Assembly (NCBI GenBank): GCA_046754125.1
Contig: JBHHVC010000001.1
Location: 1 to 45,073 of the forward strand
DNA length: 45,073 nucleotides
Reading direction: 5' to 3'
DNA from: Candidatus Zixiibacteriota bacterium
Lineage (GTDB): Bacteria; Zixibacteria; MSB-5A5; GN15; FEB-12
The notes below the pieces were generated by a model. The model had not been told where the DNA came from and searched no databases. It was given only the letters and a program-made list of their open reading frames with translations. Shown here in pieces: positions 94 to 44,306 of this stretch (positions are counted from its first letter, which is position 1; every line of letters begins with the position of its first letter). The position numbers were made by a program, and so were the translations under genes.

Positions 94-1302
94 ATGCTGG
101 TCGAAGAGGATTTACGAGTGCGTGTTGAACGATGGCAGGTTGCTCCCCATGTAGTCGACCTCGAGACATCTATCATTCGGGAGATACTGAAGATATCTTC
201 TCAACCCGGCGTCATTTCCTTTGCCGGAGGACTTCCGGCACCCGAGTTGTTTCCATTGGACGAACTTAAAGTGATTGCTGTCCGTGTGCTCGATACCTAT
301 ATGTCGGATAGTCTCCAGTATTCCCTTTCACGAGGAATTACCCCTCTACGCGAATCAATTGCAACTCTGGCCAGTACCAGAGGCACGCCGACTTCTATCG
401 ACAACATACTGATAACCTGCGGCGCTCAGCAGGCAATCGAACTGGTCGCCCGTGCATTCATCGACCGAGGCGACTACATCCTGACCGAGTATCCAACATA
501 TGTCGGTGCCCTTCAGGCGTTCAACTACTACCAGGCGCGTTACGTAGCTGTCGAGATGGATAATGAAGGAATGATCGTCGATCAGGTCGAAGAAAAGCTG
601 CGGAAGTTCAGGCCGAAACTGATCTACACCGTTTCCAACTTCCAGAATCCTACTGGAATCACCATGTCTGAAGAGCGCCGCCGCCAATTGGTGGCAATTG
701 CCGCTCGATTTGATATCCCGATTGTCGACGATAATCCGTATGGTGACATACGCTTCGAGGGCGAACGGGTTCCCACCTTGAAGTCTTTGGGCGGGGACCA
801 GGTTATTGCAATTCGCACATTCTCCAAGGTATTGGCCCCCGGATTACGTGTCGGCTGGATGAACGGGCCGGTAGAGGTAATGCCCCAGTTTGAAAAGGTG
901 AAGCAATGCACAGACCTGCATACCAATACTTTTGCGCAGTATCTCATTTATGAATGGCTCAAGGATGGCAATCTAGATCCACACGTTGCTCGGCTGGCGG
1001 CAGACTATGGCGCAAAACGTGATCTGATGCTTGACTGTCTGGAAGAGCACTTCCCGCAGGAGGCTACTTGGACTCGGCCGGAGGGCGGTCTGTTTATCTG
1101 GATCGAGCTGCCAAAACACATTTCCGCCAAAGCACTCCTGCCACAGGCTGTGGAACGGAAAGTGGCCTATGTTTACGGTCAGCCGTTTTTCCCAGATGGT
1201 CAGGGGCTTAACTGCATGCGGCTGAACTTCTCCAATGCTTCACATGACGACGTCCGCACCGGTATAGCCCGGCTGGGCGAACTACTTAAAGAACAGATAT
1301 AG
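94..1302 (+). CDS. PLP-dependent aminotransferase, class I/II fold (ARO8/LysN/MocR-C-domain-like); probable aromatic or 2-aminoadipate aminotransferase
   Basis: 402-aa ORF. Carries the ISFAGGLPAPELFP motif and the TFSKVLAPGLRVGW PLP-lysine motif typical of this subfamily. SD-like AGGATGAGG lies just upstream of the ATG. First gene of the aromatic block. Confidence 0.85.
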   Translation: MLVEEDLRVRVERWQVAPHVVDLETSIIREILKISSQPGVISFAGGLPAPELFPLDELKVIAVRVLDTYMSDSLQYSLSRGITPLRESIATLASTRGTPTSIDNILITCGAQQAIELVARAFIDRGDYILTEYPTYVGALQAFNYYQARYVAVEMDNEGMIVDQVEEKLRKFRPKLIYTVSNFQNPTGITMSEERRRQLVAIAARFDIPIVDDNPYGDIRFEGERVPTLKSLGGDQVIAIRTFSKVLAPGLRVGWMNGPVEVMPQFEKVKQCTDLHTNTFAQYLIYEWLKDGNLDPHVARLAADYGAKRDLMLDCLEEHFPQEATWTRPEGGLFIWIELPKHISAKALLPQAVERKVAYVYGQPFFPDGQGLNCMRLNFSNASHDDVRTGIARLGELLKEQI

Positions 1303-1366: not shown

Positions 1367-2209
1367 ATGAACTTTTCCTTTGCCAAGTACCACGCCTTAC
1401 GTAATGATTTTATGGTAGTCGATGCCGGAAATAGAAGATTACCCAGACCCGCTCTATCCCGGCTGGCTATCGCGACTTGTGATCGTCGAGCGGGCATTGG
1501 TGCTGACGGACTACTCTATCTGTCATCGAGCAACAGAGCCGACCGCAAAATAGATGTCTTCAACGCTGACGGGAGCTGGGCCGAGAAATCTGGTAACGGC
1601 CTTCGTATAGGCGGAGTGCACTTGAAGCTGTCCGGACATAGGAAAAGAGTTGTCACTTTAGAATCAGCGGGCGCCATACACGATGTGAGAATTGACAGGC
1701 GCGTTGGCAATGCCTTCTCGGTGACAACCGACCTCGGCCCTCCAGTATTCGAGACTTCAGCGATTCCGGTCAAATCACGACATCGCTTTATGATCCACGG
1801 GCTGCTGAAGATAGGCGGCACAGAATTACCAATTACCTGTCTGTCGGTCGGTAACCCCCACGCGGTGCTGTTCGTAGACAGTTTCGACTTTGACTGGCGC
1901 ACTCTGGGTCACGACATCGAACACCACCCTTTCTTCACCGATCGTACCAACGTGGAATTTGTCAAGGTCATCAACAGTCGTCGGCTCAAAGTCGTTGACT
2001 GGGAGCGCGGGGTTGGTCCTACGCCATCTTCCGGTACCGGGGCCGCCGCCGCCTTAAGTGCCGCAGTGATGATGGGAATGGTCAAGCGTCGCTGCCGAGT
2101 AGTCTTTAACAGTGGAACAATCGAAGTCGAATGGGACGACGCGACAAATCGTATCAGCATCTGTGGACCGGTAGAGTTCATATGCAAGGGAGAGTTCCGG
2201 TGCCAGTGA
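1367..2209 (+). CDS. Diaminopimelate epimerase (DapF) family protein; atypical, with both catalytic Cys positions occupied by Ser
   Basis: DapF motifs present: HALRNDFMVVD, FNADGS, SGNGLR, VGNPHAV, WERGVGPT, SGTGAAAA. Start set to ATG 1367 (MNFSFAKYHALRNDF), which matches the usual DapF N-terminus, rather than TTG 1331 from the ORF track. Ser at 1589-1591 (TCT) and 2030-2032 (TCC) align with E. coli Cys73 and Cys217. Confidence 0.8.
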   Translation: MNFSFAKYHALRNDFMVVDAGNRRLPRPALSRLAIATCDRRAGIGADGLLYLSSSNRADRKIDVFNADGSWAEKSGNGLRIGGVHLKLSGHRKRVVTLESAGAIHDVRIDRRVGNAFSVTTDLGPPVFETSAIPVKSRHRFMIHGLLKIGGTELPITCLSVGNPHAVLFVDSFDFDWRTLGHDIEHHPFFTDRTNVEFVKVINSRRLKVVDWERGVGPTPSSGTGAAAALSAAVMMGMVKRRCRVVFNSGTIEVEWDDATNRISICGPVEFICKGEFRCQ

Positions 2210-3666
2210 CATCGTTCAACGAAGTAAAAAGACTCAATCAATCGGGCAATATCATACCATTGCATGAGCGGATCCCGGCCGACCTCGATACGCCCGTCGC
2301 TGCATACATGAAACTGGCCTCGCGATGCCGGGAATCATTCCTTCTGGAGTCGATTGAGGGAGGTGAGAAGCTGGCCAGGTACTCATTCATCGGCTTCAAT
2401 CCGTTCTTGGTTGTGGAAGGAAAGGCAGGTCAGGTCACATTGATTCAGGGACGCCGCCGCCAAGCCATCGAAGCTCACCCCCATGAATTCATGCGTGAAC
2501 TGTTCAGGCAATATCGACCGGTTCGTATTCCCGGACTTCCCAGGTTTACAGGCGGGGCCGTCGGATATTTTGGCTACGACACTATCCGTTGGGTTGAGCG
2601 TCTTCCGGACAACAATCCCGACGACATTGGCTTGCCCGAGATGCGATTCGCCTTATACAATCACGTTGTGGCCTTCGATCACCTGAAACAGGAGATCGTT
2701 ATCATTTCCAACATCCTGCACGACAGGGGAACGCCCGGCTTGCGAGCCAAATTCGACCGGGCAAAATCGCTGATCGAGACTATCGTCAACAAGCTGGCCC
2801 GAGGGCGCGTCGACCGAAAGGTCCAACGACCCGGTCGCGTCCGAGTTGTGCCTCACTATACTAAGGCTGAGTTCGAAAAGATGGTCCGGCGCGCCAAGTG
2901 GCATATCAAGGAGGGGAACGTTTTCCAGGTGGTGCTTTCCCAGCGGTGGCATGTCGATTCGGATCAGTCTGCTCTAAGTGTCTACCGTCGCCTGCGACGA
3001 ATAAATCCGTCGCCCTACATGTTTCTTCTCACATCCGGCAAAAACGCTGTGGTAGGCGCATCACCTGAGATGACCGTTCGGATAGAGCAGAATCGTATCG
3101 AGACCAGGCCTATCGCCGGTACCCGCCCGCGGGGGGGCAACGAGGCAGAGGATATTCGTCTTAGCAACGATCTTCTTTCCGATGAAAAAGAAATCGCCGA
3201 ACATACAATGCTGCTGGACCTCGGTCGAAACGACATCGGACGCGTGGCTGAACCGGGATCGGTACGTGTTGTCGACAATATGAAAATTGAAAAGTACTCG
3301 CATGTCATCCACATAGTGAGCTCAGTTGAGGGGCGGCTCAAGCGACGGACGGCCCCCATTGATGCCCATTTTGCCTGCTTTCCCGCCGGAACCGTTTCCG
3401 GTGCTCCCAAGATTCGAGCTATGCAGTTAATAGACGATCTGGAGAAAGAGCGGCGCGGAATCTACGCCGGGTCGATTGCCTACCTGGACTTCTGGGGGAA
3501 CCTTGATTCCTGCATAGCCATTCGAACTGTGGTGAAGCGCGGCAGAAGATACTATGTGCAGGCGGGCGCCGGTATTGTCGCCGATTCTAAACCTGCTCGA
3601 GAGTTTCGCGAGACCGAAGCCAAAGCGCACGCGCTTATGGAAGCGATAACCGGAGATTCAGCATAA
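2182..3666 (+). CDS. trpE: Anthranilate synthase component I
   Basis: Strong TrpE signature: DLDTPVAAYMKL, SPEMTVRIE, GTRPRG, LLDLGRNDIGRV, FPAGTVSGAPKIRAM, RGIYAGSIAYLDF. The ORF-track start at 2131 lies inside the dapF-like gene. Plausible starts are ATG 2182, GTG 2200 (GGGAGAG SD 5 nt upstream) or GTG 2206 (GTGA overlap with the upstream stop). Confidence 0.95.
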   Translation: MQGRVPVPVTSFNEVKRLNQSGNIIPLHERIPADLDTPVAAYMKLASRCRESFLLESIEGGEKLARYSFIGFNPFLVVEGKAGQVTLIQGRRRQAIEAHPHEFMRELFRQYRPVRIPGLPRFTGGAVGYFGYDTIRWVERLPDNNPDDIGLPEMRFALYNHVVAFDHLKQEIVIISNILHDRGTPGLRAKFDRAKSLIETIVNKLARGRVDRKVQRPGRVRVVPHYTKAEFEKMVRRAKWHIKEGNVFQVVLSQRWHVDSDQSALSVYRRLRRINPSPYMFLLTSGKNAVVGASPEMTVRIEQNRIETRPIAGTRPRGGNEAEDIRLSNDLLSDEKEIAEHTMLLDLGRNDIGRVAEPGSVRVVDNMKIEKYSHVIHIVSSVEGRLKRRTAPIDAHFACFPAGTVSGAPKIRAMQLIDDLEKERRGIYAGSIAYLDFWGNLDSCIAIRTVVKRGRRYYVQAGAGIVADSKPAREFRETEAKAHALMEAITGDSA

Positions 3667-4235
3667 TGATTCTCGTTCTGGACAATTACGATTCATTTAC
3701 CTACAATCTGGTGCAATACCTCGGTGAATTGGGGGCGGACGTTGCGGTCTGCCGTAATGACTCCCTGACCGTTGCTCAGGCTCTGAACATGGGTGCTGAT
3801 GGCCTGCTGCTCTCACCGGGGCCGGGCCGTCCGGACAAGGCGGGCATAATGAACGACCTGATTGCCGCAGCCATTGGCAAGCTGCCGATACTAGGGGTCT
3901 GCCTTGGTCATCAGGGAATCGCCGAAGTGCTTGGAGGCAGCATAACTTATGCGCAAACAATAATGCACGGCAAGACGTCGGAGATCAATCACGACGGCTC
4001 GACGCTCTTTCATAATATCACGTCGCCGTTTGTTGCAACTCGCTACCACTCGCTCGTCATAGATAGATCAAGTCTACCCGAGGAATTGGCGACGACGGCA
4101 TGGACCGAGGATGGCACAATTATGGGCATCCAGCATCGTGAATTACCCGTATATGGGCTGCAATTCCATCCCGAGTCAATTATGACTGCTGAAGGGAAGA
4201 GAATACTTGCGAACTTTCTTGGAGTGTTGACATGA
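3666..4235 (+). CDS. trpG: Anthranilate synthase component II (glutamine amidotransferase)
   Basis: 189 aa. MILVLDNYDSFTYNLVQYL, GVCLGHQ catalytic Cys motif, LQFHPES. TAATG overlap with the trpE stop. Confidence 0.95.
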   Translation: MILVLDNYDSFTYNLVQYLGELGADVAVCRNDSLTVAQALNMGADGLLLSPGPGRPDKAGIMNDLIAAAIGKLPILGVCLGHQGIAEVLGGSITYAQTIMHGKTSEINHDGSTLFHNITSPFVATRYHSLVIDRSSLPEELATTAWTEDGTIMGIQHRELPVYGLQFHPESIMTAEGKRILANFLGVLT

Positions 4236-5245
4236 TTCGAAAGGTATTAGAAAGCGTTTTGGCGGGCGAGCATCTCAGCGTTACCACCGCACATGCCGTA
4301 ATGAACTTCATAATGAACGGTGAGGCGACACCAGCGCAGATTGCTGCCTTCACTGTAGGGATGCGGATGAAAGGAGAGACCGTGATTGAAATCGCAGGCT
4401 TTGTGCGAGCCATGCGCGATCACATGGTCACCATATCAGTCGATGACCCCAACACCGTCGACGGATGCGGCACCGGTGGCGACGGTGCACATACTCTGAA
4501 CATCTCGACCGCCGCAGCAATCGTTGCTTCTGCTGCTGGCTGTACAGTGGCCAAACATGGCAACCGATCGGTCAGTTCAAAATGCGGATCGGCCGATTTG
4601 CTCGAGGCCTGTGGAGCCAATATCGACTCCGGCGTAGAAAGCGTTGAAAAGGTAATCAACCAGACCGGCTTCGGGTTCATGTTCGCACCACGCTTCCATC
4701 CCGCCATGAAATATGCTGCCGGTCCACGCAGGGAACTCGGTATACGGACGTTCTTCAACGTGCTGGGCCCCATGACCAATCCGGCCGGTGTGAAACGGCA
4801 GGTCATAGGTGTCTATGATCCACTGCTGATGGAACTGATGTCCGAGGTGTTACGCATGACCGGTTCAGAACATGTAATCGTTGCCCATTCACAAGACGGA
4901 CTCGACGAGTTCTCAGTATCAGGCCGTACTGACTATGTAGAGCTTAAGGATGGAAAACTACAGCGCGACAGCATTTCTGCCTGCGATGTCGGTCTGGCCG
5001 AGCATCCCCTCACAGAACTAATTGGAGGTGAGGCAGCCGAGAATCATAGACGTCTTCACACTCTGCTTGATGGCGAAACGGGCGCCTATCGTGATTGCGT
5101 CATCCTTAACGCGGCAGCCATGATCTACGTTGCAGGCAAGGCCGCATCTATAGCGGACGGCGTAGCTAAAGCGTCCGAGGCAATAGATTCCGGTGCGGGC
5201 AAGGATAAACTCGCGCATTGGATAGCGGCAACGTTACGCTCATAA
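4232..5245 (+). CDS. trpD: Anthranilate phosphoribosyltransferase
   Basis: 337 aa. GCGTGGDG, NISTAAA, KHGNRSVSSKCGSAD, and FFNVLGPMTNPA motifs. ATGA overlap with the trpG stop. Confidence 0.95.
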   Translation: MIRKVLESVLAGEHLSVTTAHAVMNFIMNGEATPAQIAAFTVGMRMKGETVIEIAGFVRAMRDHMVTISVDDPNTVDGCGTGGDGAHTLNISTAAAIVASAAGCTVAKHGNRSVSSKCGSADLLEACGANIDSGVESVEKVINQTGFGFMFAPRFHPAMKYAAGPRRELGIRTFFNVLGPMTNPAGVKRQVIGVYDPLLMELMSEVLRMTGSEHVIVAHSQDGLDEFSVSGRTDYVELKDGKLQRDSISACDVGLAEHPLTELIGGEAAENHRRLHTLLDGETGAYRDCVILNAAAMIYVAGKAASIADGVAKASEAIDSGAGKDKLAHWIAATLRS

Positions 5246-6570
5246 TGACTCTGCCCGAATCGACCTTGTCAGCGGCAACGGTTCAGACTCGCATACGAAA
5301 ACGCATTGTCTCCGCAATAGTCAATTATCTATCAAGCCTGCGTCAGTTCTCCCGCAATGCGAGGCTGTATCTGCTAGGCTCTTTCTTGATGGGAGTAAAC
5401 TTTCACACCTTTCAATTACTGCTCAATCTGTATCTCAAGGAGACCGGCCTTGCGGAAGGAGCGATCGGAAGTGTGATTTCGTCTCGTGCGGTCGGAATGA
5501 CTCTAATGGCTCTACCTGCAGCAATTGTCTTCAGTCGCACGCGCCTGAAGCCAGCTCTCGTGGTAGTATCACTCCTATTTGCATTATTCTCCCTCGGCCT
5601 AATCGCAGCCGATTCAGTGAATATGCTCCGACTGGCATCGGCCCTTACCGGAGGCGCTTTCGCATTCTTGTTCGTGGCATCCGGGCCGTTTTTCATGCGT
5701 AACTCTTCGAAAGTAGAGCGCACTCACCTGTTTGCGGCATCGTTTGGCGTTATGATACTCGCCGGTATGATCGGCTCGCTCGGCGCTGGAAACATGGTCG
5801 ATATGCTGGGCCGAATCGCCGGCAATGCGGCCGACGGCTATCGTTATACTATGGCAGGAGCTATTGGTCTGGGCCTGTTGTCCATAATTCCCTTTTCCCT
5901 GATAAAATCTTCGCGTCCCTCCAAAGAAGAATCGACAATCAGTCTCTCGCTGAAACAATTCCGCAGCCGTTGGCGCCACTATTTTCGCTTCAGCTTTGCG
6001 AACTTTCTGCTGGGAATGGGCGCAGGGTTGATAATCCCGTTTCTGAATCTCTATTTCAAGGATCGCTTCCACCAGTCGCCTTCGGAGATAGGCAGCTTCT
6101 ACTTTGCTGTCCAGTTCTCAATGCTGGCCGGCGCGATGGCCGGTCCTGTTCTGGCCGGACGTATGGGGCTGGTCCGCACAATAGTCTTTACCCAGCTTGC
6201 CTCAATCCCATTCATGCTTACCCTTTCGCACAGCTATATTCTCTGGCTTGCTGCTATAGCATTTGTTGTCCGTGGCGGCCTGATGAATCTGGGCGTGCCG
6301 ATTGTAACTAACTTTGCCATGGAAATGTCCGAAAAGCAGGAACAGGGGCTGATGAACGCCCTTCTAAAGATTTCCTGGACATCAGCCTGGATGATCTCTG
6401 CTGCCGTTGGCGGTCTGTGCATAGAGGCTTATGGCTATACGACAACGATGGATATTGCGGTTTTGCTTTACCTCGCCTCATCTGCAGTGTTCTTTGTGTT
6501 CTTCCGACAATCCGAAACAAAGGGAGATGGCGGCAGCGGTTGGACAATGATTCGACAGAACACGGTCTAA
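5245..6570 (+). CDS. MFS-type transporter (about 12 predicted TM segments), substrate unknown, embedded in the trp operon
   Basis: Hydrophobic ORF with repeated TM-like stretches and a central charged loop (KSSRPSKEES...RSRWRHY), typical of MFS 6+6 topology. Start taken at ATG 5245 (TAATG overlap with the trpD stop). Its stop overlaps the trpC ATG (TAATG at 6568-6572). Confidence 0.8.
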   Translation: MTLPESTLSAATVQTRIRKRIVSAIVNYLSSLRQFSRNARLYLLGSFLMGVNFHTFQLLLNLYLKETGLAEGAIGSVISSRAVGMTLMALPAAIVFSRTRLKPALVVVSLLFALFSLGLIAADSVNMLRLASALTGGAFAFLFVASGPFFMRNSSKVERTHLFAASFGVMILAGMIGSLGAGNMVDMLGRIAGNAADGYRYTMAGAIGLGLLSIIPFSLIKSSRPSKEESTISLSLKQFRSRWRHYFRFSFANFLLGMGAGLIIPFLNLYFKDRFHQSPSEIGSFYFAVQFSMLAGAMAGPVLAGRMGLVRTIVFTQLASIPFMLTLSHSYILWLAAIAFVVRGGLMNLGVPIVTNFAMEMSEKQEQGLMNALLKISWTSAWMISAAVGGLCIEAYGYTTTMDIAVLLYLASSAVFFVFFRQSETKGDGGSGWTMIRQNTV

Positions 6571-10267: not shown

Positions 10268-11281
10268 ATGATAATTGTCATGGACGAGCAGGCGACCGAG
10301 AACCAGGTACAGGCTATCATTGAGCATCTGGTCGACCGGGGGTTTGATATCCATAGATCATCCGGCCGTATGCAGGTTGTTCTCGGCGTCGTCGGCGACA
10401 CCCATCTGATCGATCCGCGCGACTTCGAAGTGCACAAAGGCGTGCACGAGGTCATTCGTATCACCGAGCCATATAAACTTGTTGGCCGAACATTCCGGCG
10501 GGAAGACTCTAAAATCAAAGTTGGTGAGGCGACATTTGGCGGCAAGAAACTCTGTTTGATTTCCGGTCCTTGCGCTGTTGAATCCCGCACGCAGATTAGG
10601 AAGATAGCTCGTCTGGTACGCGAAACCGGTACCCTCCTGCTCCGGGGAGGCGCCTACAAGCCCCGTTCGTCCCCCTATTCCTTTCAGGGGCTTGGCGAGG
10701 AAGGCCTCAAATACTTGAGAGAGGCGGCTGACGAAAACGGTATGGCCGTTGTGTCCGAAGTCATGGACCGCGTGGACATTATCCCTGTCCTCAAGTATGT
10801 AGACATGATTCAGGTCGGTGCCCGCAATATGCAAAACTTCGCACTGCTCAAGGAGTTGGGAAAGGTACAAAAGCCAATCTTACTCAAACGGGGTATGTCC
10901 GCAACTATCAAAGAACTCTTGATGGCTGCAGAATACATCATGGCCGGGGGAAATCATCAGGTCGTCTTATGCGAGCGGGGTATACGGACATTTGAAAATT
11001 ACACCCGTAACACCCTCGACATCTCAGCCATTCCGATCCTGAAAAAACTATCCCACCTGCCTGTTATAGCCGACCCTTCCCATGGAACCGGCATACGCGA
11101 CAAAGTCGCACCAATGGCACGGGCTGCCATAGCAGCAGGGGCCGATGGGCTTATCATCGAGTCCCACTACGATCCGGATTCTGCCCTTTCCGACGGCGCC
11201 CAGACTTTGTATATGGAGCAGTACGAAAAGCTGGTCGCCGAGCTCAGAATAATCGCGACTGCCGTCGACCGCACTTTATGA
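10268..11281 (+). CDS. aroF: 3-deoxy-7-phosphoheptulonate (DAHP) synthase, type I-beta, with an N-terminal ferredoxin-like/ACT-like regulatory domain (paralogue 1)
   Basis: 337 aa. Core motifs [50 protein letters not shown] and ADPSHGTG. About 70 aa N-terminal extension ([21 protein letters not shown]), as in Thermotoga-type enzymes. GAGGAA SD upstream. Confidence 0.9.
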
Positions 11282-11384: not shown

Positions 11385-13202
11385 ATGATGGAAAAAGACA
11401 AATACAAACTCCAGTTTGCATCTGTTGTGTCGCAGGCATTTCGCGACCTTTTTTCGGATGCGTATAAGACAACCGGCGATAATCAGGTATTTGACCGGGA
11501 GTACGTCTACGAGCATCTGGACAAACCCAAAGATCCGGCTCTGGCACGATTTGCCTTCCCCGTATTTCGTTTTGGAAAACTGCTTGGAGACAAGCCTCCC
11601 AGCATCGCGGCCAGAGTCGCGGAGCACTGCAGCAAGCTTTTGAAGTCTGATCGAAACGGCGGACCATTGGTAACCGTCAGTTCGGCCAGCGGATTCCTGA
11701 ATGCCACCATTGATTCCAGGACGCTAGCCAGTGAAACACTCAGTCAAATCCTTTCATCAGAATCCGCCTACGCAGACTCCAATGTAGGCCAGGGCAGGAA
11801 AGTGCTGGTAGAATACTCCTCCGTGAACATTGCCAAGCCGTTTGGTATCGCACATCTGCGAACTACCATTCTTGGTAACTCGTTACGTCGTATCTTCAAG
11901 AAACTCGGATACGACGTTGTGGGAATCAACTTCATCGGCGACTGGGGAACGCAGTTTGGCAAGATGATTGTGGCCTACAAAAAATGGGGCGAGGGCGTTG
12001 ATCTCGACCAAAACCCGGTTGAACAACTCTACCGCCTCTACGTGCGGTTTCACGAGGAAGCCAAGTCAGACACCTCGCTCGATGACGAAGCACGCCGACA
12101 ATTCAAATTGCTCGAAGATGGCGATCAGGAAGCGGTCGATCTGTGGAGCCGATTCAGGGACTTGTCCCTACGCGAATTTGAAGCAATATATCAGCGACTT
12201 GGGATCGATTTCGATGTCATAACCGGTGAATCGACCCTCAACGACAAGATGGAGTCAGTAATTGAGCGATTCAGATCGGCCGGGCTGACCTCGATATCGG
12301 ATGGCGCCCTCATTGTCGAATTGCACGACGATCGCCTGCCCCCCTGCCTGCTACGAAAGGCGGATGGAGCCACCCTCTACGCAACTCGCGATCTGGCCGG
12401 TCTTGTTCACCGGTGGGAAGAATATCGCTTCCATGAATCCCTGTACGTCGTCGCGGTCTCGCAATCAGATCATTTTGCACAGGCCTTCAAAGCCATGCAG
12501 CTACTCGAGGAAGCGGAACAACTCCCTCCGGACAAACGCATGACCGGCCGAGTCAGGCACGTCGATTTTGGCTGGGTCAAGTTTGGCGACAAGGGGATGT
12601 CAACCCGTGCGGGAACAATCATTTTTCTTGAAGACGTCCTCAATAAGGCGACCGATCTTGCCCGCACAATCATTGTCGATAAGAATCCGGATCTCAAAGA
12701 GATCGATCGGACGGCCGAGATGATTGGAGTTGGTGCCGTACTGTTTTCACAAATGTCGGTCCGGCGCCAAAAAGATGTCAATTTCGTCTGGGAGCAAGTT
12801 CTCAGTTTCGAGGGCGAAACCGGCCCATATTTGCAGTACACTCATGCTCGCCTCTGCTCACTCTTGCGCAATTATGGCCGTGAAATCTCTTCCGAAATAG
12901 ATGCCGACTTGCTTGATGGCTCCGAGGAGAAGAGGCTGATTGAGCACCTGGCCGATTTCTCTGCTGCCGTTGTCGACGCCGGCAGGTTATACGACCCCAA
13001 CCTCATTACGACATATCTCCTGCGTTTAGCCTCCGGGTTCAACAAGCTGTACCAACGTAAAGACGATAACGGTCGCATTGACCGCATCATTTCCGAAGAT
13101 GCTAAACTTACTGCCGCCCGCATTGCGCTTGTGAAATCTGTGCAAATCGTACTACGAGAAGGACTGCGTCTGCTCGCCATCGAGGCGCCGCAGGAAATGT
13201 AA
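11385..13202 (+). CDS. argS: Arginine--tRNA ligase
   Basis: 605 aa. SSVNIAKPFGIAHLRTTILGN (HIGH region), ADGATLYATRDLA and C-terminal anticodon-binding (DALR-type) region YLQYTHARLCS. GGAGA SD 5 nt upstream. Confidence 0.95.
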   Translation: MMEKDKYKLQFASVVSQAFRDLFSDAYKTTGDNQVFDREYVYEHLDKPKDPALARFAFPVFRFGKLLGDKPPSIAARVAEHCSKLLKSDRNGGPLVTVSSASGFLNATIDSRTLASETLSQILSSESAYADSNVGQGRKVLVEYSSVNIAKPFGIAHLRTTILGNSLRRIFKKLGYDVVGINFIGDWGTQFGKMIVAYKKWGEGVDLDQNPVEQLYRLYVRFHEEAKSDTSLDDEARRQFKLLEDGDQEAVDLWSRFRDLSLREFEAIYQRLGIDFDVITGESTLNDKMESVIERFRSAGLTSISDGALIVELHDDRLPPCLLRKADGATLYATRDLAGLVHRWEEYRFHESLYVVAVSQSDHFAQAFKAMQLLEEAEQLPPDKRMTGRVRHVDFGWVKFGDKGMSTRAGTIIFLEDVLNKATDLARTIIVDKNPDLKEIDRTAEMIGVGAVLFSQMSVRRQKDVNFVWEQVLSFEGETGPYLQYTHARLCSLLRNYGREISSEIDADLLDGSEEKRLIEHLADFSAAVVDAGRLYDPNLITTYLLRLASGFNKLYQRKDDNGRIDRIISEDAKLTAARIALVKSVQIVLREGLRLLAIEAPQEM

Positions 13203-13203
13203 C

Positions 13204-14049
13204 ATGCCGGGGAATAAGCGAACAACAATTGCAATCTGCGGTTTTGGACTGATTGGTGGCAGTATGGCTTTGGACCTGCAACGTTCTCGCCGCAGCACCG
13301 CCATCTACGCCTGGGATAAACCCTCCGTTCTTGCACGTCTCAAACACGATAAGCGATTCCGCATCAAGAGCGAGCGTACATTTGCCGCAACAGTTGCAGG
13401 GCGGGACATCATTATTCTCTCGGCCAGCCACCGAGCCAACGAGATGCTCCTGAGGCGACTCGCTCGAATGAAAACTGTCGACAACGCCCTGATTCTGGAT
13501 ACGGGAGCTGTCAAACAGCCGATTGTACGAGTGGCAAACATGCTTAACTTGCACGGGAGCACACAATTTCTGCCCTCGCACCCGATGGCCGGACGAGAAA
13601 AAAAGGGATTCGCCAGTGCCGCAAAAGGGCTCTTTGCAGAACATGCCTGGTGCTTCGACGATCAAGTCACGCTAAACAACGTAAATAAGGCCAGACTTGA
13701 CTGGCTCGTTCGGTCTCTGAAGGCAACCCCTTTTGAGGTTGACGCCGCGCAGCACGACGAGATAATGGCCGAGATTTCCCACTTGCCGCAACTGGTGTCC
13801 ACTCTTCTCGGAGCACAGGTCAACGCGAATCTGATACCTCTCGCAGGACCGGGACTGAAATCAATGTTGAGACTGGCCGGATCACCATGGGAGGTCTGGT
13901 CGGAAATCGTTGCGGAGAATCGACAGGAAATCGTACAGTCATTGCGGCTCTTTGAGCGCAACCTGCGCCATGTTACAAAACTGATAGAAAATGAGCAGTC
14001 ACTCAGCGACATTTTCGCGGCTGCAGCCAGGAGTTATCGATGCTTATAG
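13204..14049 (+). CDS. tyrA: Prephenate (or arogenate) dehydrogenase
   Basis: 281 aa. Rossmann [22 protein letters not shown] and ISHLPQLVS motifs of the TyrA family. Confidence 0.85.
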
Positions 14050-15056
14050 TGATGGAGACCAGGGCCACTGAAAAAATGGTGACTAAGGTCTGTGCCGAGA
14101 TCAAACAAATGGGACTTACCGCTCACCCCATGCCGGGAGCGCAGCGTACAGCCATCGGAGTTACCGGCAACAAGGCACAGGTGGATGCCGATCGCATTCT
14201 CGCCCAGCCCGGCGTTCGTGAGATCATACACGTCACCAAACCATACAAGCTGGTCAGTAGGGAGTTCACCGCCGAGAACAGTATTATCGATGTCGATGGC
14301 GTCAAGTTTGGCGGCGATGAGTTTGTTGTTACAGCCGGACCCTGCTCGGTCGAGAGCCTTGAACAATGTATGACCATCGCTGAACAGGTAGCAAAGCACG
14401 GAGCCAAAGTGTTTCGCGGCGGTGCCTACAAGCCGCGCACCTCTCCCTACGCATTTCAGGGGTTGCACGAGGAAGGCCTCAAAATCCTTGCGCAAGTGCG
14501 TGAACGATTCGGGTTGCGGATTGTCACCGAAGCCATTGACACCGAAACTATCGATCTTGTTGCCGAGTACACCGACATCATCCAGATCGGCGCTCGCAAC
14601 ATGCAAAACTATTCACTGCTGCGAAAGGCCGGAAAAACCGACAGGGCGATCCTGCTCAAGAGGGGAATGTCGGCGACTCTTGAAGAGCTCCTCATGGCAG
14701 CCGAGTACATTATGGCCGAGGGAAACCGCCGCGTTATTTTGTGTGAACGAGGCGTGCGGACTTTTGCCGACCACACTCGCAACACCCTCGATCTGTCGGC
14801 CATACCGTACGTCAAGCGCATGAGCCATCTACCCATTATCTCCGATCCGTCGCATGGAACAGGTCGCCGCGACAAAGTAATCCCGTTGTCACGCGCTTCC
14901 ATTGCTGTTGGTGCCGATGGTTTGATTGTCGAAGTGCACAACGACCCCGCCAACGCGCTCTCCGATGGACCCCAGTCGATCACTCCAGATATGTTTGCAC
15001 AACTAATGCAGGAGATTCGCTCGCTCGCTCCTGCTGTTAACAGGACTTGTCCGTGA
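14040..15056 (+). CDS. aroF: 3-deoxy-7-phosphoheptulonate (DAHP) synthase, type I-beta, with an N-terminal regulatory domain (paralogue 2)
   Basis: 338 aa, colinear with 10268-11281: [50 protein letters not shown] and SDPSHGTG. The N-terminal approx 70 aa diverge from paralogue 1. Confidence 0.9.
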
Positions 15057-39347: not shown

Positions 39348-40346
39348 TCAGCCGAATATGTTCACAGTCTGCAAGTTGTATTTTTTGGCATCCTTGCTAA
39401 GCAACTTGTAAACATGCCATGCGGTCATCAGGTCTTGCACAGCCAGACCGGTGGAATCAAATATGGTGACATCGTCATCCGACTGTCGGACGCTCAGGTT
39501 TTTGGCGATTACCTGTCCCAGTTCGGCTGCAAGGTCGTTCTTAGTAAAGGTCCCCTGTGAGACGGCGACATTGATCTCACCGGAATGAGATGCCTGTATC
39601 CAGTCGTCAATCACCACTTTTGAGGACGAAAGTAGTTGGCCGGAGAGTTCTTGTTTGCCGATTGCATCTGCGCCGATTGCATTGATATGCGCGCCTGCCG
39701 GGACGTGTTCTTTCATAACGATCGGTTTACGAGTGGAGGTCGTACAGTTGATAATGTCTGCACCGTCGCATGCTGCCTTGATGGAATCCACGACAGTTGC
39801 TGTTAATCCGTGTTTGTCTGAACAATGTTTGGCGAAGGATTGTGCTTTATCTTTATCGAGATCACAGATTGAGACTTCGGAGATGCCCGGTTTGGCGACC
39901 ATCATTCCCGCCACCTGAGTTTCTGCCTGCATTCCGGCGCCGATAAAGGCTGCCTTTTTGCTGTTACTCTTTGCCAGATACTTTGAGGCGATGCCGCCTG
40001 CGGCGCCGGTGCGCATATTGGTAACATGAGTGCCGTCCATCACGGCGAGGGGGAATCCTGTCTTCGGATCGGTGAGCAGTATTGTTGCCATGACAGTGGG
40101 AAGGTGTTGGCTATGGTTGTTGGGATGCACATTCACCGCCTTGATTCCCGCGCCTTCGATTTCCGGTATGTAGGCCGGCATGCAGCGCAAGTCGCCGGAG
40201 TAGTCCTCGAAATAGAGATAGGACTTTGGAGGCATCTGCACTTTGTCCTCACCGTAAAGACGAAAGGCTTGCTCGGTGACCCTGACACAGTCCTCCATTG
40301 TCAGAACTTGTGCAACATCCGATTTCTTGATGAGAAATGTTTCCAC
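39348..40346 (-). CDS. Ornithine cyclodeaminase / mu-crystallin family protein (NAD-dependent)
   Basis: 332 aa. FIGAGMQAETQV Rossmann motif and overall OCD_Mu_crystall pattern. GTG start with GGAGGAA SD 6 nt upstream. Its stop is only 5 nt from the convergent coaE stop. Confidence 0.85.
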   Translation of the reverse strand: METFLIKKSDVAQVLTMEDCVRVTEQAFRLYGEDKVQMPPKSYLYFEDYSGDLRCMPAYIPEIEGAGIKAVNVHPNNHSQHLPTVMATILLTDPKTGFPLAVMDGTHVTNMRTGAAGGIASKYLAKSNSKKAAFIGAGMQAETQVAGMMVAKPGISEVSICDLDKDKAQSFAKHCSDKHGLTATVVDSIKAACDGADIINCTTSTRKPIVMKEHVPAGAHINAIGADAIGKQELSGQLLSSSKVVIDDWIQASHSGEINVAVSQGTFTKNDLAAELGQVIAKNLSVRQSDDDVTIFDSTGLAVQDLMTAWHVYKLLSKDAKKYNLQTVNIFG

Positions 40347-40496: not shown

Positions 40497-41300
40497 GTGA
40501 AGGCTATGGAACGTGCATGGGTATCGGCATCGGTGCTTGACTTGTGGGGCAAACCCGCCTCTGAAAGTGGGCGGGTCAACCAGGCATTGTACGGCGAAAT
40601 TGTGCAAGTGGTTCGTCGGCAAGCGCTGTTTGCTCTGGTCGAGCAGGAGGACGGGTATCGAGGCTGGGCTGACAGGCGATTCCTGTCCCCCGTTTCCGTC
40701 GCAGTTTACCGGAGACTGAAGAAGGCGCGGTGGATGACGGTGGTGAGACAATCAGCCCGGTTGTTTGGAAATGACGGCCGAAAGGCGGTGCCTCCCTATC
40801 TCATGGTTTACGGGACTCGCTGTCCGGTAATGTCAGTCCGAGGTGAGCGAGTCCGAATTGCGACTCCGAATGAAAAAGCTATCTACGTGAAACGAAGCTG
40901 TCTTTTGCCGATACAAGACAAGAGGGGACGCGTAACCCCCGGAATGCTTGTTACGGAAGCAAGAAGGTTTCTGGGTGTGCCCTACCTGTGGGGTGGGACA
41001 ACGCCCTTAGGATTTGACTGCTCAGGGTTTGTGAGGGCTGTTTATGGACGGTTTGGATATGAATTGCCACGTGACACGAAAGACCAGATACGGTGCGGAC
41101 ATTCGATCGAAAGGGAATCAGTGAGACCAGCCGACCTGCTCTTTTTCGATCGCCACGTGGCGATAGCAATGAGTAGAGGAAAGTACGTGCATGCGTCTCG
41201 AGGAGGAGGCGGAGTCGCAATAAACTCATTCGAAGAAACCTCGCCTGACTTTCGGGCCGATCTGATGAAAGAACTTGCGACGATCAGGAGAATAGTATAG
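40497..41300 (+). CDS. NlpC/P60 family peptidase with N-terminal SH3b domains (YkfC-like gamma-D-glutamyl-L-diamino acid endopeptidase)
   Basis: GFDCSGFVRAVY (catalytic Cys), HVAIAM and YVHAS motifs. SH3b-like ALYGEIVQVV...GYRGWADRRFL. GTG 40497 has GAGG 8 nt upstream. ATG 40506 is an alternative start. Confidence 0.85.
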   Translation: MKAMERAWVSASVLDLWGKPASESGRVNQALYGEIVQVVRRQALFALVEQEDGYRGWADRRFLSPVSVAVYRRLKKARWMTVVRQSARLFGNDGRKAVPPYLMVYGTRCPVMSVRGERVRIATPNEKAIYVKRSCLLPIQDKRGRVTPGMLVTEARRFLGVPYLWGGTTPLGFDCSGFVRAVYGRFGYELPRDTKDQIRCGHSIERESVRPADLLFFDRHVAIAMSRGKYVHASRGGGGVAINSFEETSPDFRADLMKELATIRRIV

Positions 41301-42328
41301 TGCAGTTTGATGCTGTCAGGATTTCAATACCGCTAAAGCAGAGATTTAGTGTTTCCGGTGGAAGCACTGAAGTAAAAACCAACGTATTGACTGTTTTGAA
41401 TAATCGGTATTCAGGTGAGGCCTCCGGTTCCGTCTATTATGGGCCGAGCATCGATGCCATTGAAAGTGATATCCGGGCCGGTCTTGAACTTTTGCGTCAT
41501 GTGAAATCTATCAGTGTGGAGACACTGGCGGAAATCGACAAGTTTGACATTTTGCCTATTGCGCGATCGGCGTTGATAGGGATGACTCTCAACTATTTGT
41601 CCGGGGAGATGCGCAAATACCCATGGGAAGTGCTATCGCTCGGTACACCCGTTGGGATAAAGAGTTCGTGCACAATCAGCTTGCAAGAGCCGGTGCAGAT
41701 GCTCGAGGCTATTCGACAATCTGAGTTTCCTATTGTCAAGGTCAAGATGGGTGGTCAGTATGACCCGGAGATCCTAACCGGTCTTGAGTCGATAGGCGGG
41801 AAAGAAATTCGGGTAGACGCCAACGGCGGCTGGACATGCGACAGGGCGCAGGAAATGATTTTTCATCTCGCGCGATTGGGGATCACGATAATAGAGCAGC
41901 CGACCGATGTGGAGTTCCTGAGCGAGTGGCAGCATTTGAAAGGCAAGAATGATTCGGTCAGGTTGATTATGGACGAGGGTCTGAACAGTCTGGCCAATTA
42001 CGAAATGTACAGCGATTATTTCGACGGTATCAATATAAAGATGGAAAAATCCGGCGGAATACTGGAGGGCATTCGGCTGGCCGAACGAGCTCATGAAGAT
42101 GGCAAGCAGGTCATGCTTGGCTGTATGGTGGAATCGTCAATAGGTATCGCTCAGTCGGTCTATATGTCGTCACAGGCCGACTGTTTTGATCTCGACGGTC
42201 CATTGTTGCTGAAAGATGATCTAGCCGAAGGAATCCGTTACGACAGGGAGTCGATTGAGGTTGACAGGGAGATCATCGGAGGCCCCAAGCTCAAGCGGGA
42301 TGTTATCGAGAGATATACCACAGACTAG
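41300..42328 (+). CDS. L-Ala-D/L-Glu (dipeptide) epimerase, enolase superfamily (YkfB/YcjG-like)
   Basis: 342 aa. VKVKMG, RVDANGGW, IEQP, MDEGL and KMEKSGG motifs in the order expected for MLE-subgroup dipeptide epimerases. The TAGTG junction and AGGAG SD couple it to the endopeptidase gene. Confidence 0.8.
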   Translation: MQFDAVRISIPLKQRFSVSGGSTEVKTNVLTVLNNRYSGEASGSVYYGPSIDAIESDIRAGLELLRHVKSISVETLAEIDKFDILPIARSALIGMTLNYLSGEMRKYPWEVLSLGTPVGIKSSCTISLQEPVQMLEAIRQSEFPIVKVKMGGQYDPEILTGLESIGGKEIRVDANGGWTCDRAQEMIFHLARLGITIIEQPTDVEFLSEWQHLKGKNDSVRLIMDEGLNSLANYEMYSDYFDGINIKMEKSGGILEGIRLAERAHEDGKQVMLGCMVESSIGIAQSVYMSSQADCFDLDGPLLLKDDLAEGIRYDRESIEVDREIIGGPKLKRDVIERYTTD

Positions 42329-44306
42329 GCTCGTTTCGGTCCGGCCTCGCTGTGTCAACAAAGCGTGGGTTTGTCTGCTTCTGTTGCTTTTGCAGCTGTC
42401 TGCTGCGGAAGCTGCCGCTTCTGGCGAGTCGATTAAGGTCATTTATCCCAAACCGGGTCAGACTATTGGCGCGGTCGATTCCACGTTCATACTGGGCCAT
42501 CTGACTGTCGACAACCCGGCCGAATATGATTTAACCGTAAACGATCAGCCTGTGGCGGTGCACGAAGATGGTGGGTTTCTTGCGTTCCTGGCTATAGCGT
42601 CGGGCGAGTTTACGTTTTACCTGAAGGCCCGATCGGTCATTGACGTTGCAAGCGAACGTGCAGATGACGGCGCGCTGTCGACCCATCTCGATCCGGGGAT
42701 TTTGACTCTCAACCTGTCGGTGTCGGTGCCCCGACCGGGAATGCCCGTAGGAATTGACTCACTTGTGATTGTCGACGAGTACGATCGACCATCTGGTGAC
42801 CTGGCGCTTGCCACAGGAGATGTACTGCGGACGTCATTTTTGGGTACTCCCGGCTGTCGGGCATGGTTCAGTATTGGTGATGTAATTGACTCGGTGGCGA
42901 TGGCTGAGACTGGGCAGCAATTCCAGCCTTATTGGGGTAAGGCGGTGTTTGGTCGCGGAGCTGTGCCGGATTCACTAAAACTTAAGGGTGTTTATGCAGG
43001 TTTTCTTTCGGTAGCCGATTCTCTAGTCACTTCCCAGGACACGATCAGGTTTCATCTTGCGGCACCAGATAAGGCTGAGATTGTCTGCCGGTATCTTTTG
43101 CCACCATACGAGTTGATGGACTCGGTGGCGCTGAAGTATTTGCATCTGCCTGATACGGCCGTCAGCGTTCGATCTACTTACTCGGTATCGCTAAATGACC
43201 ATGCATATCCGTTCACGGTTCGATTTACGGATTCAGTGCAGATCGTTCGTCTTGGTCCGCGCAAGGGTTACTTGTCCATATTTCAGCCTGAGGGAGTTCA
43301 GGCGCTGGCGGTTGGTGCGGAGGGCGACTGGTACCGAGTCAGATTGTCGGCCACCCGCTTCGGCTGGGTGAACAAGAACTCGGTCAAGCGATTGCCTAAG
43401 GGCATCCTACCGCCACGGTCCTATGTGACATCAATCAGAACATATGACGAGCCGGATAGATTGCGCGTCGAAGTTGGCCTGAAAGGGCAACATCCCTTCC
43501 GGGTGATCGAGGAAACGCGACGGCGTGTTCGGATTCGGCTGTATGGGGTTACCAGCGACACCGACTGGATCCGATATGACGAGGCATCCGATTTGATCGA
43601 TCTGGTGACCTGGTCACAAATTGAGAACGACCTCTACGAATTGACGCTGAATCTGACAGAGAGTATCTGGGGGTACGATGCTTACTACGAAGGGAACTCG
43701 TTCTATTTCCAGCTGAATAAACCGCCCTCCAGTACCAGCAAGATAAAAGGAAAGCGGATTGTGATAGATGCCGGTCACTCAAGTGATCCCGGTTCCATAG
43801 GGCCGACCGGATACACCGAGGCGGAAGCAAATCTTGCAATTGCACTGGCGTTAGAGAAATATCTGCAATCCAAAGGTGCCCAAGTTGTTATGACCCGATC
43901 TGACACCAGTGATGTGCCTTTGTATGATCGCCCGGCAATTGCCAACCTACACGATGCCGACTTGTTCGTTTCCATTCACAACAATGCCCTGCCTGATGGC
44001 GTCAATCCGTTTGTCAACAACGGAACATCGGCGTACTATTACCATCCACACTCGATTGACCTGGCTCGGTCAATTCATGCCGAAATGGTGAAACACACAG
44101 GTCTTAGCGATCATGGTCTCTTTCACGGGAATCTTGCCGTTAATCGTCCGACTCAGTATCCGGCGGTATTGATAGAGTGCGCGTTCATGATTATTCCCGA
44201 GCAGGAGGCACTGCTCAAGACTGATCGGTTTCGTGACAGAGTGGCGCGTGCGATAGGCAAGGGAATCGAGAACTTCCTGAAAGAGTATGACAGTGGGCGA
44301 CGTTAA
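42300..44306 (+). CDS. N-acetylmuramoyl-L-alanine amidase (Amidase_3) with a long N-terminal region that includes an SH3b-like module
   Basis: C-terminal IVIDAGHSSDPGSIGPTGYTEAEANL, VSIHNNA and LIECAFM motifs. SH3b-like GDWYRVRLSATRFGWVNKNSV. Signal-like WVCLLLLLLQLSAAEAAA. Start ATG 42300 (ATG 42255 also possible), overlapping the epimerase end. Confidence 0.85.
   Translation: MLSRDIPQTRLVSVRPRCVNKAWVCLLLLLLQLSAAEAAASGESIKVIYPKPGQTIGAVDSTFILGHLTVDNPAEYDLTVNDQPVAVHEDGGFLAFLAIASGEFTFYLKARSVIDVASERADDGALSTHLDPGILTLNLSVSVPRPGMPVGIDSLVIVDEYDRPSGDLALATGDVLRTSFLGTPGCRAWFSIGDVIDSVAMAETGQQFQPYWGKAVFGRGAVPDSLKLKGVYAGFLSVADSLVTSQDTIRFHLAAPDKAEIVCRYLLPPYELMDSVALKYLHLPDTAVSVRSTYSVSLNDHAYPFTVRFTDSVQIVRLGPRKGYLSIFQPEGVQALAVGAEGDWYRVRLSATRFGWVNKNSVKRLPKGILPPRSYVTSIRTYDEPDRLRVEVGLKGQHPFRVIEETRRRVRIRLYGVTSDTDWIRYDEASDLIDLVTWSQIENDLYELTLNLTESIWGYDAYYEGNSFYFQLNKPPSSTSKIKGKRIVIDAGHSSDPGSIGPTGYTEAEANLAIALALEKYLQSKGAQVVMTRSDTSDVPLYDRPAIANLHDADLFVSIHNNALPDGVNPFVNNGTSAYYYHPHSIDLARSIHAEMVKHTGLSDHGLFHGNLAVNRPTQYPAVLIECAFMIIPEQEALLKTDRFRDRVARAIGKGIENFLKEYDSGRR

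Follow-up and report, generated by a model that had tools for sequence, protein, structure and literature searches.

The dapF locus of the window

The DNA analysed here, referred to as the window, is a stretch of 45,073 nucleotides at the start of contig JBHHVC010000001.1 from a Candidatus Zixiibacteriota bacterium. Close to its 5' end lies an open reading frame (ORF) encoding a homologue of diaminopimelate (DAP) epimerase, DapF, in which serine stands at both of the positions held by the catalytic cysteines. DapF is a textbook two-thiol, cofactor-independent epimerase. In the window, dapF follows an aminotransferase gene and precedes trpE, trpG and trpD, a gene for a transporter of the major facilitator superfamily (MFS), trpC, trpF, trpB and trpA, a 3-deoxy-D-arabino-heptulosonate 7-phosphate (DAHP) synthase gene, argS, tyrA, a second DAHP synthase gene, aroA, aroE, aroK, aroB, aroQ and housekeeping genes (Table 1).

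Membership of the DapF family was found at the level of domains and of the whole protein. Two stretches of the window protein matched PF01678 (Pfam; 141.6 bits, cut-off 34.7, E = 1.6e-41), and the DapF equivalog model TIGR00652 (NCBIfam) scored 201.8 bits against a cut-off of 114.65. The protein aligned end to end with solved DapFs in phmmer searches, best with 9mro (9e-48), while 3ejx gave 1e-44. No match to PF02567, the PhzF family, was found at E <= 0.01, which places the protein outside that family. The DapF scaffold motifs that a previous reading of the sequence without database searches (the sequence-only reading) had listed are all present. A TTG codon at 1331 offers an alternative upstream start; homologues are 279-283 residues long. 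No second dapF was seen within the window. RefSeq labels serine-variant proteins, for example WP_008424085.1 and WP_297886955.1, as 'diaminopimelate epimerase'.

Serine at both catalytic positions

Catalytic positions were numbered on the H. influenzae DapF sequence, which is identical to that of 1GQZ. In the phmmer alignments with solved DapFs, the window motif 'eksgng' fell onto 'emcgng' and 'pssgtg' onto 'lacgtg', placing Ser75 and Ser222 where DapF carries its thiol/thiolate pair. Ser222 is preceded by Ser221, a position held by alanine in DapFs with both cysteines (Cys/Cys). The sequence-only reading had proposed serine at both sites; the alignment to solved structures, the H. influenzae numbering and the codons all bear this out.

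The same state was found in the relatives. Among the 120 closest homologues (51-57% identity, from Zixibacteria wherever named), 119 are Ser/Ser and one is Ser/Cys, which excludes the sequencing error that had already been judged improbable from the letters. Within the Zixibacteria clade as a whole, the first site is serine in 127 of 127 members, and 126 of these proteins, from independent assemblies, are Ser/Ser; P0090 is the lone Ser/Cys protein. The GC content is even across the region (51-55%).

We then examined an AlphaFold2 (AF2) model of the window protein, predicted from a 50-sequence alignment with a mean pLDDT of 96.3. Ser75 and Ser222 directly precede helices 76-88 and 223-235 of the model, and in DapF-fold enzymes the catalytic cysteine pair lies at the N-termini of two central helices (PMC11602996). 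The model thus has the DapF fold, with the residues of the catalytic positions at these two N-termini, and together with the alignment it confirms that neither position is a cysteine. Its best structural matches were the closed, aziDAP-bound DapFs 9mro and 3ejx (TM-score 0.91, root-mean-square deviation 2.0 Å). Identity was 33-34% to DapF structures (E about 1e-31) and 13% to PhzF structures (E about 1e-15). The matches also included the H. influenzae mutant structures 2Q9H and 2Q9J and the RppH-DapF complexes 6d13 and 6vck.

Table 1. Features of the dapF region, in window coordinates
Feature	Position	Strand	Basis or remark
dapF ortholog, Ser/Ser in place of catalytic Cys/Cys	1367..2209	+	280 residues, ATG start, intact ORF
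Codon TCT, Ser75, on H. influenzae DapF Cys73 (first catalytic residue)	1589..1591	+	alignment
Codon TCC, Ser222, on H. influenzae DapF Cys217 (second catalytic residue)	2030..2032	+	alignment
Class I/II pyridoxal phosphate-dependent aminotransferase, KAT-II / LysN (2-aminoadipate) / ARO8 subgroup	94..1302	+	PF00155, 1.1e-30
dapF/trpE junction: Shine-Dalgarno (SD)-like GGGAGAG 2188-2194; in-frame GTG at 2200 and 2206; dapF TGA 2207-2209	2188..2209	+	sequence
trpE (2200 to 3666), trpG (3666-4235), trpD (4232-5245)	2200..5245	+	TIGR00564, 550.9 bits; in a subset of Zixibacteria only
MFS transporter, ancestral downstream neighbour of dapF	5218..6570	+	PF07690; start codon uncertain
argS, arginyl-tRNA synthetase, part of the aminotransferase-dapF-(MFS)-argS backbone	11385..13202	+	tblastn

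Distribution and origin of the serine variants

A homologue search of 1.84 billion representatives clustered at 50% identity was performed, and the 150 best matches were taken. These included 103 Cys/Cys, 37 Ser/Ser and 7 mixed proteins, as well as 4 fragments with serine at the second site. A second large Ser/Ser clade, besides that of Zixibacteria, was found in Acidobacteriota (Blastocatellia and Aminicenantes/Saccharicenans) together with some Acidimicrobiia. The peptide pattern DG[ST][EG]A[EG]xSGN was also searched in one genome per GTDB species and matched at least 600 stretches; the motif with serine at the first site occurs in DapF relatives of at least 590 GTDB species. The best 80 of these stretches came from Terriglobia, Bryobacterales, Pyrinomonadaceae, Aminicenantes, Rokubacteria, Methylomirabilota, Chloroflexi, Aquificota, Ignavibacteria, Dadabacteria and a Clostridium isolate, among others. 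We parsed 72 loci, of which 70 were Ser/Ser and 2 were Ser/Cys. Ser/Ser DapF is a natural variant of a known enzyme family, far more widespread than one window shows. No literature on natural serine variants of DapF was found.

The serine codon at the first site is TCN in most lineages and AGY in a subgroup with the motifs 'EAEKSGNG...ASGSS'. Because TCN and AGY are each one step from the cysteine codons TGY but two steps from each other, the change from cysteine to serine probably occurred more than once. This count of origins rests on codon families and synteny, the tree being a quick neighbour-joining tree with long branches. AGY was read at the first site in L049, L070, L075, L081, L083, L085 and L087 (loci, designated L, are neighbourhoods of relatives extending up to 10 kb around each gene), while L060 and L086 belong to the same motif subgroup and use TCN. 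The hosts of the 'EAEKSGNG...ASG[ST]S' subgroup are Aquificota, the Clostridium isolate (WP_008424085.1), Rokubacteria, Methylomirabilota, Firestonebacteria and Dadabacteria. A lysine stands directly before the first serine in this subgroup and in the Zixibacteria clade alike, and it may be a convergent feature of the two.

The closest representative that is not Ser/Ser, P0127, is a Cys/Ser protein ('EAEMCGNG'/'MASGTG') from a protein cluster of Zixibacteria metagenome-assembled genomes (MAGs; NIP44679.1, locus L111). It belongs to a Cys/Ser clade ('EAEMCGNG'/'ASGTG') of 38 protein clusters (P0424-P0459, L111-L114), which occurs in a second Zixibacteria lineage. In a search with the P0127 protein, the next matches after these 38 clusters were ordinary Cys/Cys DapFs from Firmicutes and Margulisbacteria. 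No Zixibacteria label was found among the 83 Cys/Cys proteins nearest to the Cys/Ser DapF of Zixibacteria, which is weak evidence against a second, Cys/Cys dapF in these organisms.

Conservation of the DAP-binding pocket

We compared 127 Zixibacteria-clade and 143 other Ser/Ser proteins (270 in total) with 96 Cys/Cys proteins. The DAP-binding residues were taken from the C. glutamicum complex (PMC5296763) and mapped to their H. influenzae equivalents. The equivalents of N11, N64, G74, N75, N190, E208 and R209 were conserved in 100% of the 270 Ser/Ser proteins, and those of N157, H159, G218 and S/T219 in at least 95%. In the window protein the binding set is present as N13, N66, G76, N77, N163, N195, E213, R214, G223 and T224. 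Both serines were invariant across the Ser/Ser clades (270/270), and neither was ever replaced by Ala, Gly, Thr or Asn. Judged from this comparison of sequences, both serines have been under long-term purifying selection.

Four columns set both Ser/Ser groups apart from the Cys/Cys proteins, namely A216S, L242F/T, V206 to D/E or F, and an extra aromatic residue at window position 117. W71, K74, D63 and H85 occur as a set in the Zixibacteria clade alone, where two helix cysteines that are conserved but not catalytic have also been lost (Cys79 to Ile, Cys222 to Ala). No relocated cysteine common to the Ser/Ser clades was found beyond those also conserved in Cys/Cys DapFs. Cys243 and Lys74 were considered as a shared compensating residue and rejected: Cys243 is specific to the Zixibacteria clade, and neither has a counterpart in the Acidobacteriota Ser/Ser clade.

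One Ser/Ser subgroup, from Pyrinomonadaceae and others (L028, L036, L045, L048, L066, L077, L100, L101 and L106), carries the motifs 'EAG[LF]SGNGTRC' and 'SSGTC' and is more diverged. In this subgroup His159 of the GNPH motif is replaced by Val, Asn or Ala, and these proteins may have a different function.

Synteny in Zixibacteria and Acidobacteriota

An aminotransferase gene lies upstream of dapF in every locus of the clade or synteny group for which upstream DNA is available (the window, L001, L002, L003/L004, L089, L090, L092, L093, L108, L111/L112, L113 and L114). On the downstream side, the window, L003/L004 and L094 are the only loci in which trpE comes directly after dapF. An MFS gene is the next gene in L001, L002, L090, L108, L113 and L114, and argS follows it except in L114, where the contig ends; the order dapF-MFS-argS was also found in L071. 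In L111 and L112, argS directly follows dapF. The argS genes of L001, L002, L090, L108, L111, L112, L071 and L095 were identified by tblastn (43-61%), and that of L113 by its Pfam domains.

L111, the Zixibacteria locus with a Cys/Ser DapF, is collinear with the backbone of the window (aminotransferase-dapF-argS-x-MatE-x-FAH-...-LptD), and no trp or aro genes were found in it. The trp/aro blocks are therefore later insertions around an ancestral aminotransferase-dapF-MFS-argS core. As far as the contigs reach, the backbone is shared by the Cys/Ser loci L111, L113 and L114 and by the other Ser/Ser types L071, L095 and L108; the full aminotransferase-dapF-MFS-argS order is seen in L108 and L113, and aminotransferase-dapF-MFS up to the contig end in L114. 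The window dapF is thus the positional ortholog of a Zixibacteria DapF that retains one cysteine. Identity between the window and L111 is 40% for DapF, which falls within the range of the housekeeping neighbours (LptD 32%, ArgS 44%, MatE 45%, aminotransferase 51%, FAH 56%) and gives no indication that constraint on dapF has been relaxed. The MFS gene that lies between trpD and trpC in the window is the direct neighbour of dapF in relatives without trp genes. Since these relatives have dapF-MFS-argS, trpEGD and trpCFBA appear to have been inserted separately, one on each side of the MFS gene; in the window, the inserted trp genes and a DAHP synthase gene lie between dapF and argS.

The flanking genes and the overlap of the dapF stop codon with candidate trpE starts were as the sequence-only reading had described them (Table 1). 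The two genes overlap by 4-10 nt in the window, and an ATGA overlap with GGAG upstream was found in L003. No terminator-like site was found between the aminotransferase gene, dapF and trpE of the window. Given the overlap, the SD-like site and the lack of a terminator-like site, co-transcription and translational coupling of dapF with trpE are plausible. This part of the previous reading stands; its further suggestion that dapF belongs to the tryptophan pathway is not supported, since trpE is adjacent only in a subset of relatives and MFS or argS follows dapF elsewhere. The overlap reflects a lineage-specific insertion of trpEGD, and hence co-expression rather than a shared pathway.

The aminotransferase has PH0207 and MsAT (about 1e-105) and Thermus LysN (1e-85) as its best solved relatives. 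DapL was rejected as its identity, since it scored 82 bits on model NF006756, for which the cut-off is 507. It is a possibility that this LysN-like enzyme serves as a non-orthologous LL-DAP aminotransferase, in which case the aminotransferase-dapF pair would form a two-gene route from tetrahydrodipicolinate to meso-DAP. No lysine riboswitch or other RNA element was found upstream of the pair in eight Zixibacteria-type loci.

In Acidobacteriota, the surroundings are different: no aminotransferase, MFS or aromatic genes were found beside Ser/Ser dapF. An LD-carboxypeptidase gene (ldcA) follows it in 11 Terriglobales loci. In 10 Terriglobales loci, 9 of them shared with the ldcA set plus L061, dapF is followed by mpl (TIGR01081, 446 bits, cut-off 388.7). 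In Pyrinomonadaceae and related Acidobacteriota MAGs, 13 loci have a PBP4-type DD-carboxypeptidase gene upstream of dapF, and HtrA and PBP1A genes lie nearby in Aminicenantes. These Acidobacteriota neighbours are genes of meso-DAP peptidoglycan turnover.

Other features of the window and of a related locus

Two paralogous DAHP synthases with an N-terminal ferredoxin-like FXD domain (10268-11281 and 14040-15056, plus strand) flank argS and the prephenate dehydrogenase gene in the aromatic supraoperon. Three plus-strand genes at 40497-44306 encode an NlpC/P60 endopeptidase with SH3, an enolase-superfamily racemase and an amidase_3 N-acetylmuramoyl-L-alanine amidase; they look like a module for recycling peptidoglycan peptides. 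The racemase is closest to the N-acetyl-D-Glu racemase DgcA and to L-Ala-D/L-Glu epimerase, with both scores below cut-off. The gene at 39348-40346, one of the few large minus-strand ORFs of the window with a protein-family match, belongs to the ornithine cyclodeaminase/mu-crystallin family; on TIGR02371, the model for archaeal-type alanine dehydrogenase, its score of 396 bits falls slightly short of the cut-off of 409.

In L001, from the Zixibacteria genome CP070777.1, positions 3354-3453 match Rfam PYLIS_3 (39.9 bits, gathering threshold 38) inside a gene with an MTTB domain. PYLIS_3 is the pyrrolysine insertion sequence of mttB (Rfam), and the match hints at a pyrrolysine-containing methyltransferase in this genome.

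Proposed function and mechanism

We lean towards the reading that the window ORF is the Zixibacteria's own dapF at its conserved position, and that its product would still be an LL-to-meso-DAP epimerase serving lysine and peptidoglycan synthesis. This reading builds on the orthology of the gene, the DapF fold and the conserved pocket, the Ser/Ser state throughout the clade and in multiple phyla, and the link to DAP-containing peptidoglycan in other phyla. Under it, Ser/Ser DapF would bind DAP and epimerise it with a part for each serine.

In the LL-to-meso direction of H. influenzae DapF, the residue on the Cys73 side removes the alpha-proton and the residue on the Cys217 side donates one. In a closed, water-free pocket, Ser75 and Ser222, placed before the two central helices, could act as the corresponding acid/base pair. 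Ser75, as an alkoxide or via a proton relay, would take the alpha-proton, and the hydroxyl of Ser222 would give a proton to the carbanion. The alkoxide would be less populated but more strongly basic, which is chemically possible. The hydroxyl of serine is acidic enough to protonate a carbanion, and the Cys/Ser clade, in which the base is kept and the acid replaced, fits this role. The Ser/Ser epimerase would probably be slower than the thiol enzymes. A slow epimerase can suffice, because engineered DapFs with a single Cys-to-Ser change retain some residual activity and E. coli survives mutation of its dapF. Insensitivity to disulfide inactivation, which has been documented for C. glutamicum DapF (PMC5296763), would be a benefit of the Ser/Ser enzyme. 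A wider proposal, which we put forward more tentatively, is that natural Ser/Ser and Cys/Ser DapFs may be fully functional epimerases that use a hydroxyl/alkoxide pair, have arisen more than once, and provide entire lineages with their only DapF (Zixibacteria, much of Acidobacteriota and Aminicenantes).

Several points weigh against an active Ser/Ser epimerase. At neutral pH, the hydroxyl of serine is far weaker as a base than a thiolate, and the alignment contains no new residue shared by all Ser/Ser clades that could act as the general base; Lys74 occurs in the Zixibacteria clade and the AGY subgroup, the residue being Leu, Met or Ile in Acidobacteriota. Serine is also a good helix N-cap, so its conservation could be structural. 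The same organisms could possess a second, Cys/Cys dapF or a meso-DAP dehydrogenase, as the loci read span at most 10 kb. Recent papers describe the thiolate as obligatory and the Cys-to-Ser change as slowing the enzyme and hindering catalysis in this enzyme class (PMC11602996, PMC12039745).

Alternative explanations

Each serine codon is one substitution from a cysteine codon, as would suit a sequencing or assembly error or a decaying pseudogene, but such an artefact is ruled out for practical purposes by the intact ORF, the 126 of 127 clade members that are Ser/Ser, the uniform GC content and the invariant binding residues. Very improbable, too, is a DapF-fold protein repurposed for the tryptophan or aromatic pathway and acting on an intermediate derived from chorismate or anthranilate, as the sequence-only reading had suggested by analogy with PhzF. 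The window gene does overlap trpE, head a trp/aro supraoperon and follow an ARO8-type aminotransferase gene, an arrangement that recurs in L003/L004 and L094. However, the trp/aro adjacency is missing from L001, L002, L090, L108, L111, L113, L114 and all Acidobacteriota loci, and the pocket is of the DAP type rather than the PhzF type. A PhzF-like or aromatic-substrate function was rejected on the pocket residues, the ranking of folds (PhzF structures at 13% identity, with no PF02567 match) and the non-conserved synteny, and the tryptophan link of the window appears as operon happenstance. E. coli DapF moonlights as an activator of RppH, and solved RppH-DapF complexes are among the structural matches (6d13, 6vck). 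The window protein might be a catalytically dead DapF, a DAP-binding pseudoenzyme that acts as a sensor, regulator or partner while meso-DAP comes from another enzyme. Loss of both thiols with retention of the binding residues is the usual signature of a pseudoenzyme, serine is favourable as a helix N-cap, and the reported effect of Cys-to-Ser changes points the same way (PMC11602996, PMC12039745). We nevertheless consider this rather unlikely, because the variant occurs in at least 590 species at ordinary housekeeping positions, including the ancestral dapF position in Zixibacteria, and because neither serine drifts to Ala, Gly, Thr or Asn. The stable Cys/Ser clade of 38 clusters fits gradual functional replacement better than loss, and, as weak evidence, a second dapF was not seen.

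For the Zixibacteria clade, an altered chemistry or substrate on the DapF scaffold is possible but doubtful. The protein could be a one-directional isomerase, a dehydratase-type enzyme or a racemase of another dicarboxylic or diamino acid, in a salvage or catabolic module with the aminotransferase and the MFS transporter. In favour of this stand the aminotransferase-dapF pair in every locus with upstream DNA, the MFS gene next to dapF in most loci, and the positions that distinguish the Ser/Ser groups (A216S, L242F/T, V206D/E or F, and the aromatic insertion at residue 117). There is also a precedent in the proline-racemase superfamily, two members of which (6r76 and 4k7g) were among the matches of the structure search: loss of one cysteine turns an epimerase into a 3-hydroxyproline dehydratase. 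However, the residues that recognise the two ends of DAP show no change, whereas HisR, DcsC and PddB, which act on other substrates (7vdy and 9cr1 among the matches), differ in these residues and keep the cysteine pair. The Acidobacteriota relatives, moreover, have neither the aminotransferase nor the MFS gene. An epimerase that still acts on DAP is the reading that we favour for the window protein.

Implications

DapF is an antibiotic target, and covalent inhibitors such as aziDAP alkylate its catalytic cysteines. If the Ser/Ser enzyme is functional, the chemistry of the family would be more flexible than assumed: inversion of an amino-acid alpha-carbon without a cofactor would be possible with a hydroxyl/alkoxide pair instead of the hallmark thiol/thiolate pair, giving a redox-insensitive epimerase that resists thiol-directed inhibitors. 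If it is inactive, reconstructions of the lysine and peptidoglycan pathways for Zixibacteria, Acidobacteriota and other phyla rest on a dead enzyme, and another route to meso-DAP exists in them. The findings bear on mechanistic enzymology and on the annotation of pathways in several phyla that have received little study. For mechanistic work, DapFs of the Cys/Cys, Cys/Ser and Ser/Ser types form a ready natural series, the latter two at one syntenic locus.

Comparison with known enzymes

The window protein resembles characterised DapF (EC 5.1.1.7; 1GQZ/2GKE, 3EJX, 9MRO, 5M47) in its length, its two-domain pseudosymmetric fold and its match to the closed conformation (TM-score 0.91). It shares 28-34% identity, every DAP-binding residue, the GNG and GTG motifs at the helix starts and a family score above cut-off. 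It differs in having serine at both catalytic cysteines and in the change of Ala216 to Ser, and its Zixibacteria clade has lost the helix cysteines Cys79 and Cys222 and gained Trp71, Lys74 and Asp63. Serine in an intact DapF-type pocket is also found in the H. influenzae mutants C73S and C217S (2Q9H, 2Q9J) and in Cys-to-Ser mutants of HisR and CntK. These, however, are single laboratory substitutions that slow catalysis, whereas here both residues are serine in a natural lineage that has natural Cys/Ser relatives.

More distant members of the fold also carry other residues in place of the catalytic cysteines. PhzF (Glu45/Asp208) has a DapF-like fold and non-cysteine catalytic residues, but it is only 13% identical to the window protein, which does not match PF02567 and has a DapF-type pocket. 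The trans-3-hydroxy-L-proline dehydratases (Cys/Thr or Ser/Cys; 6R76, 4K7G) belong to the same fold superfamily and show a natural exchange of thiol for hydroxyl at a catalytic helix start. At 12-14% identity to the window protein, they keep one thiol and have changed both substrate and reaction; in the window protein, by contrast, neither thiol remains and the substrate pocket has stayed the same.

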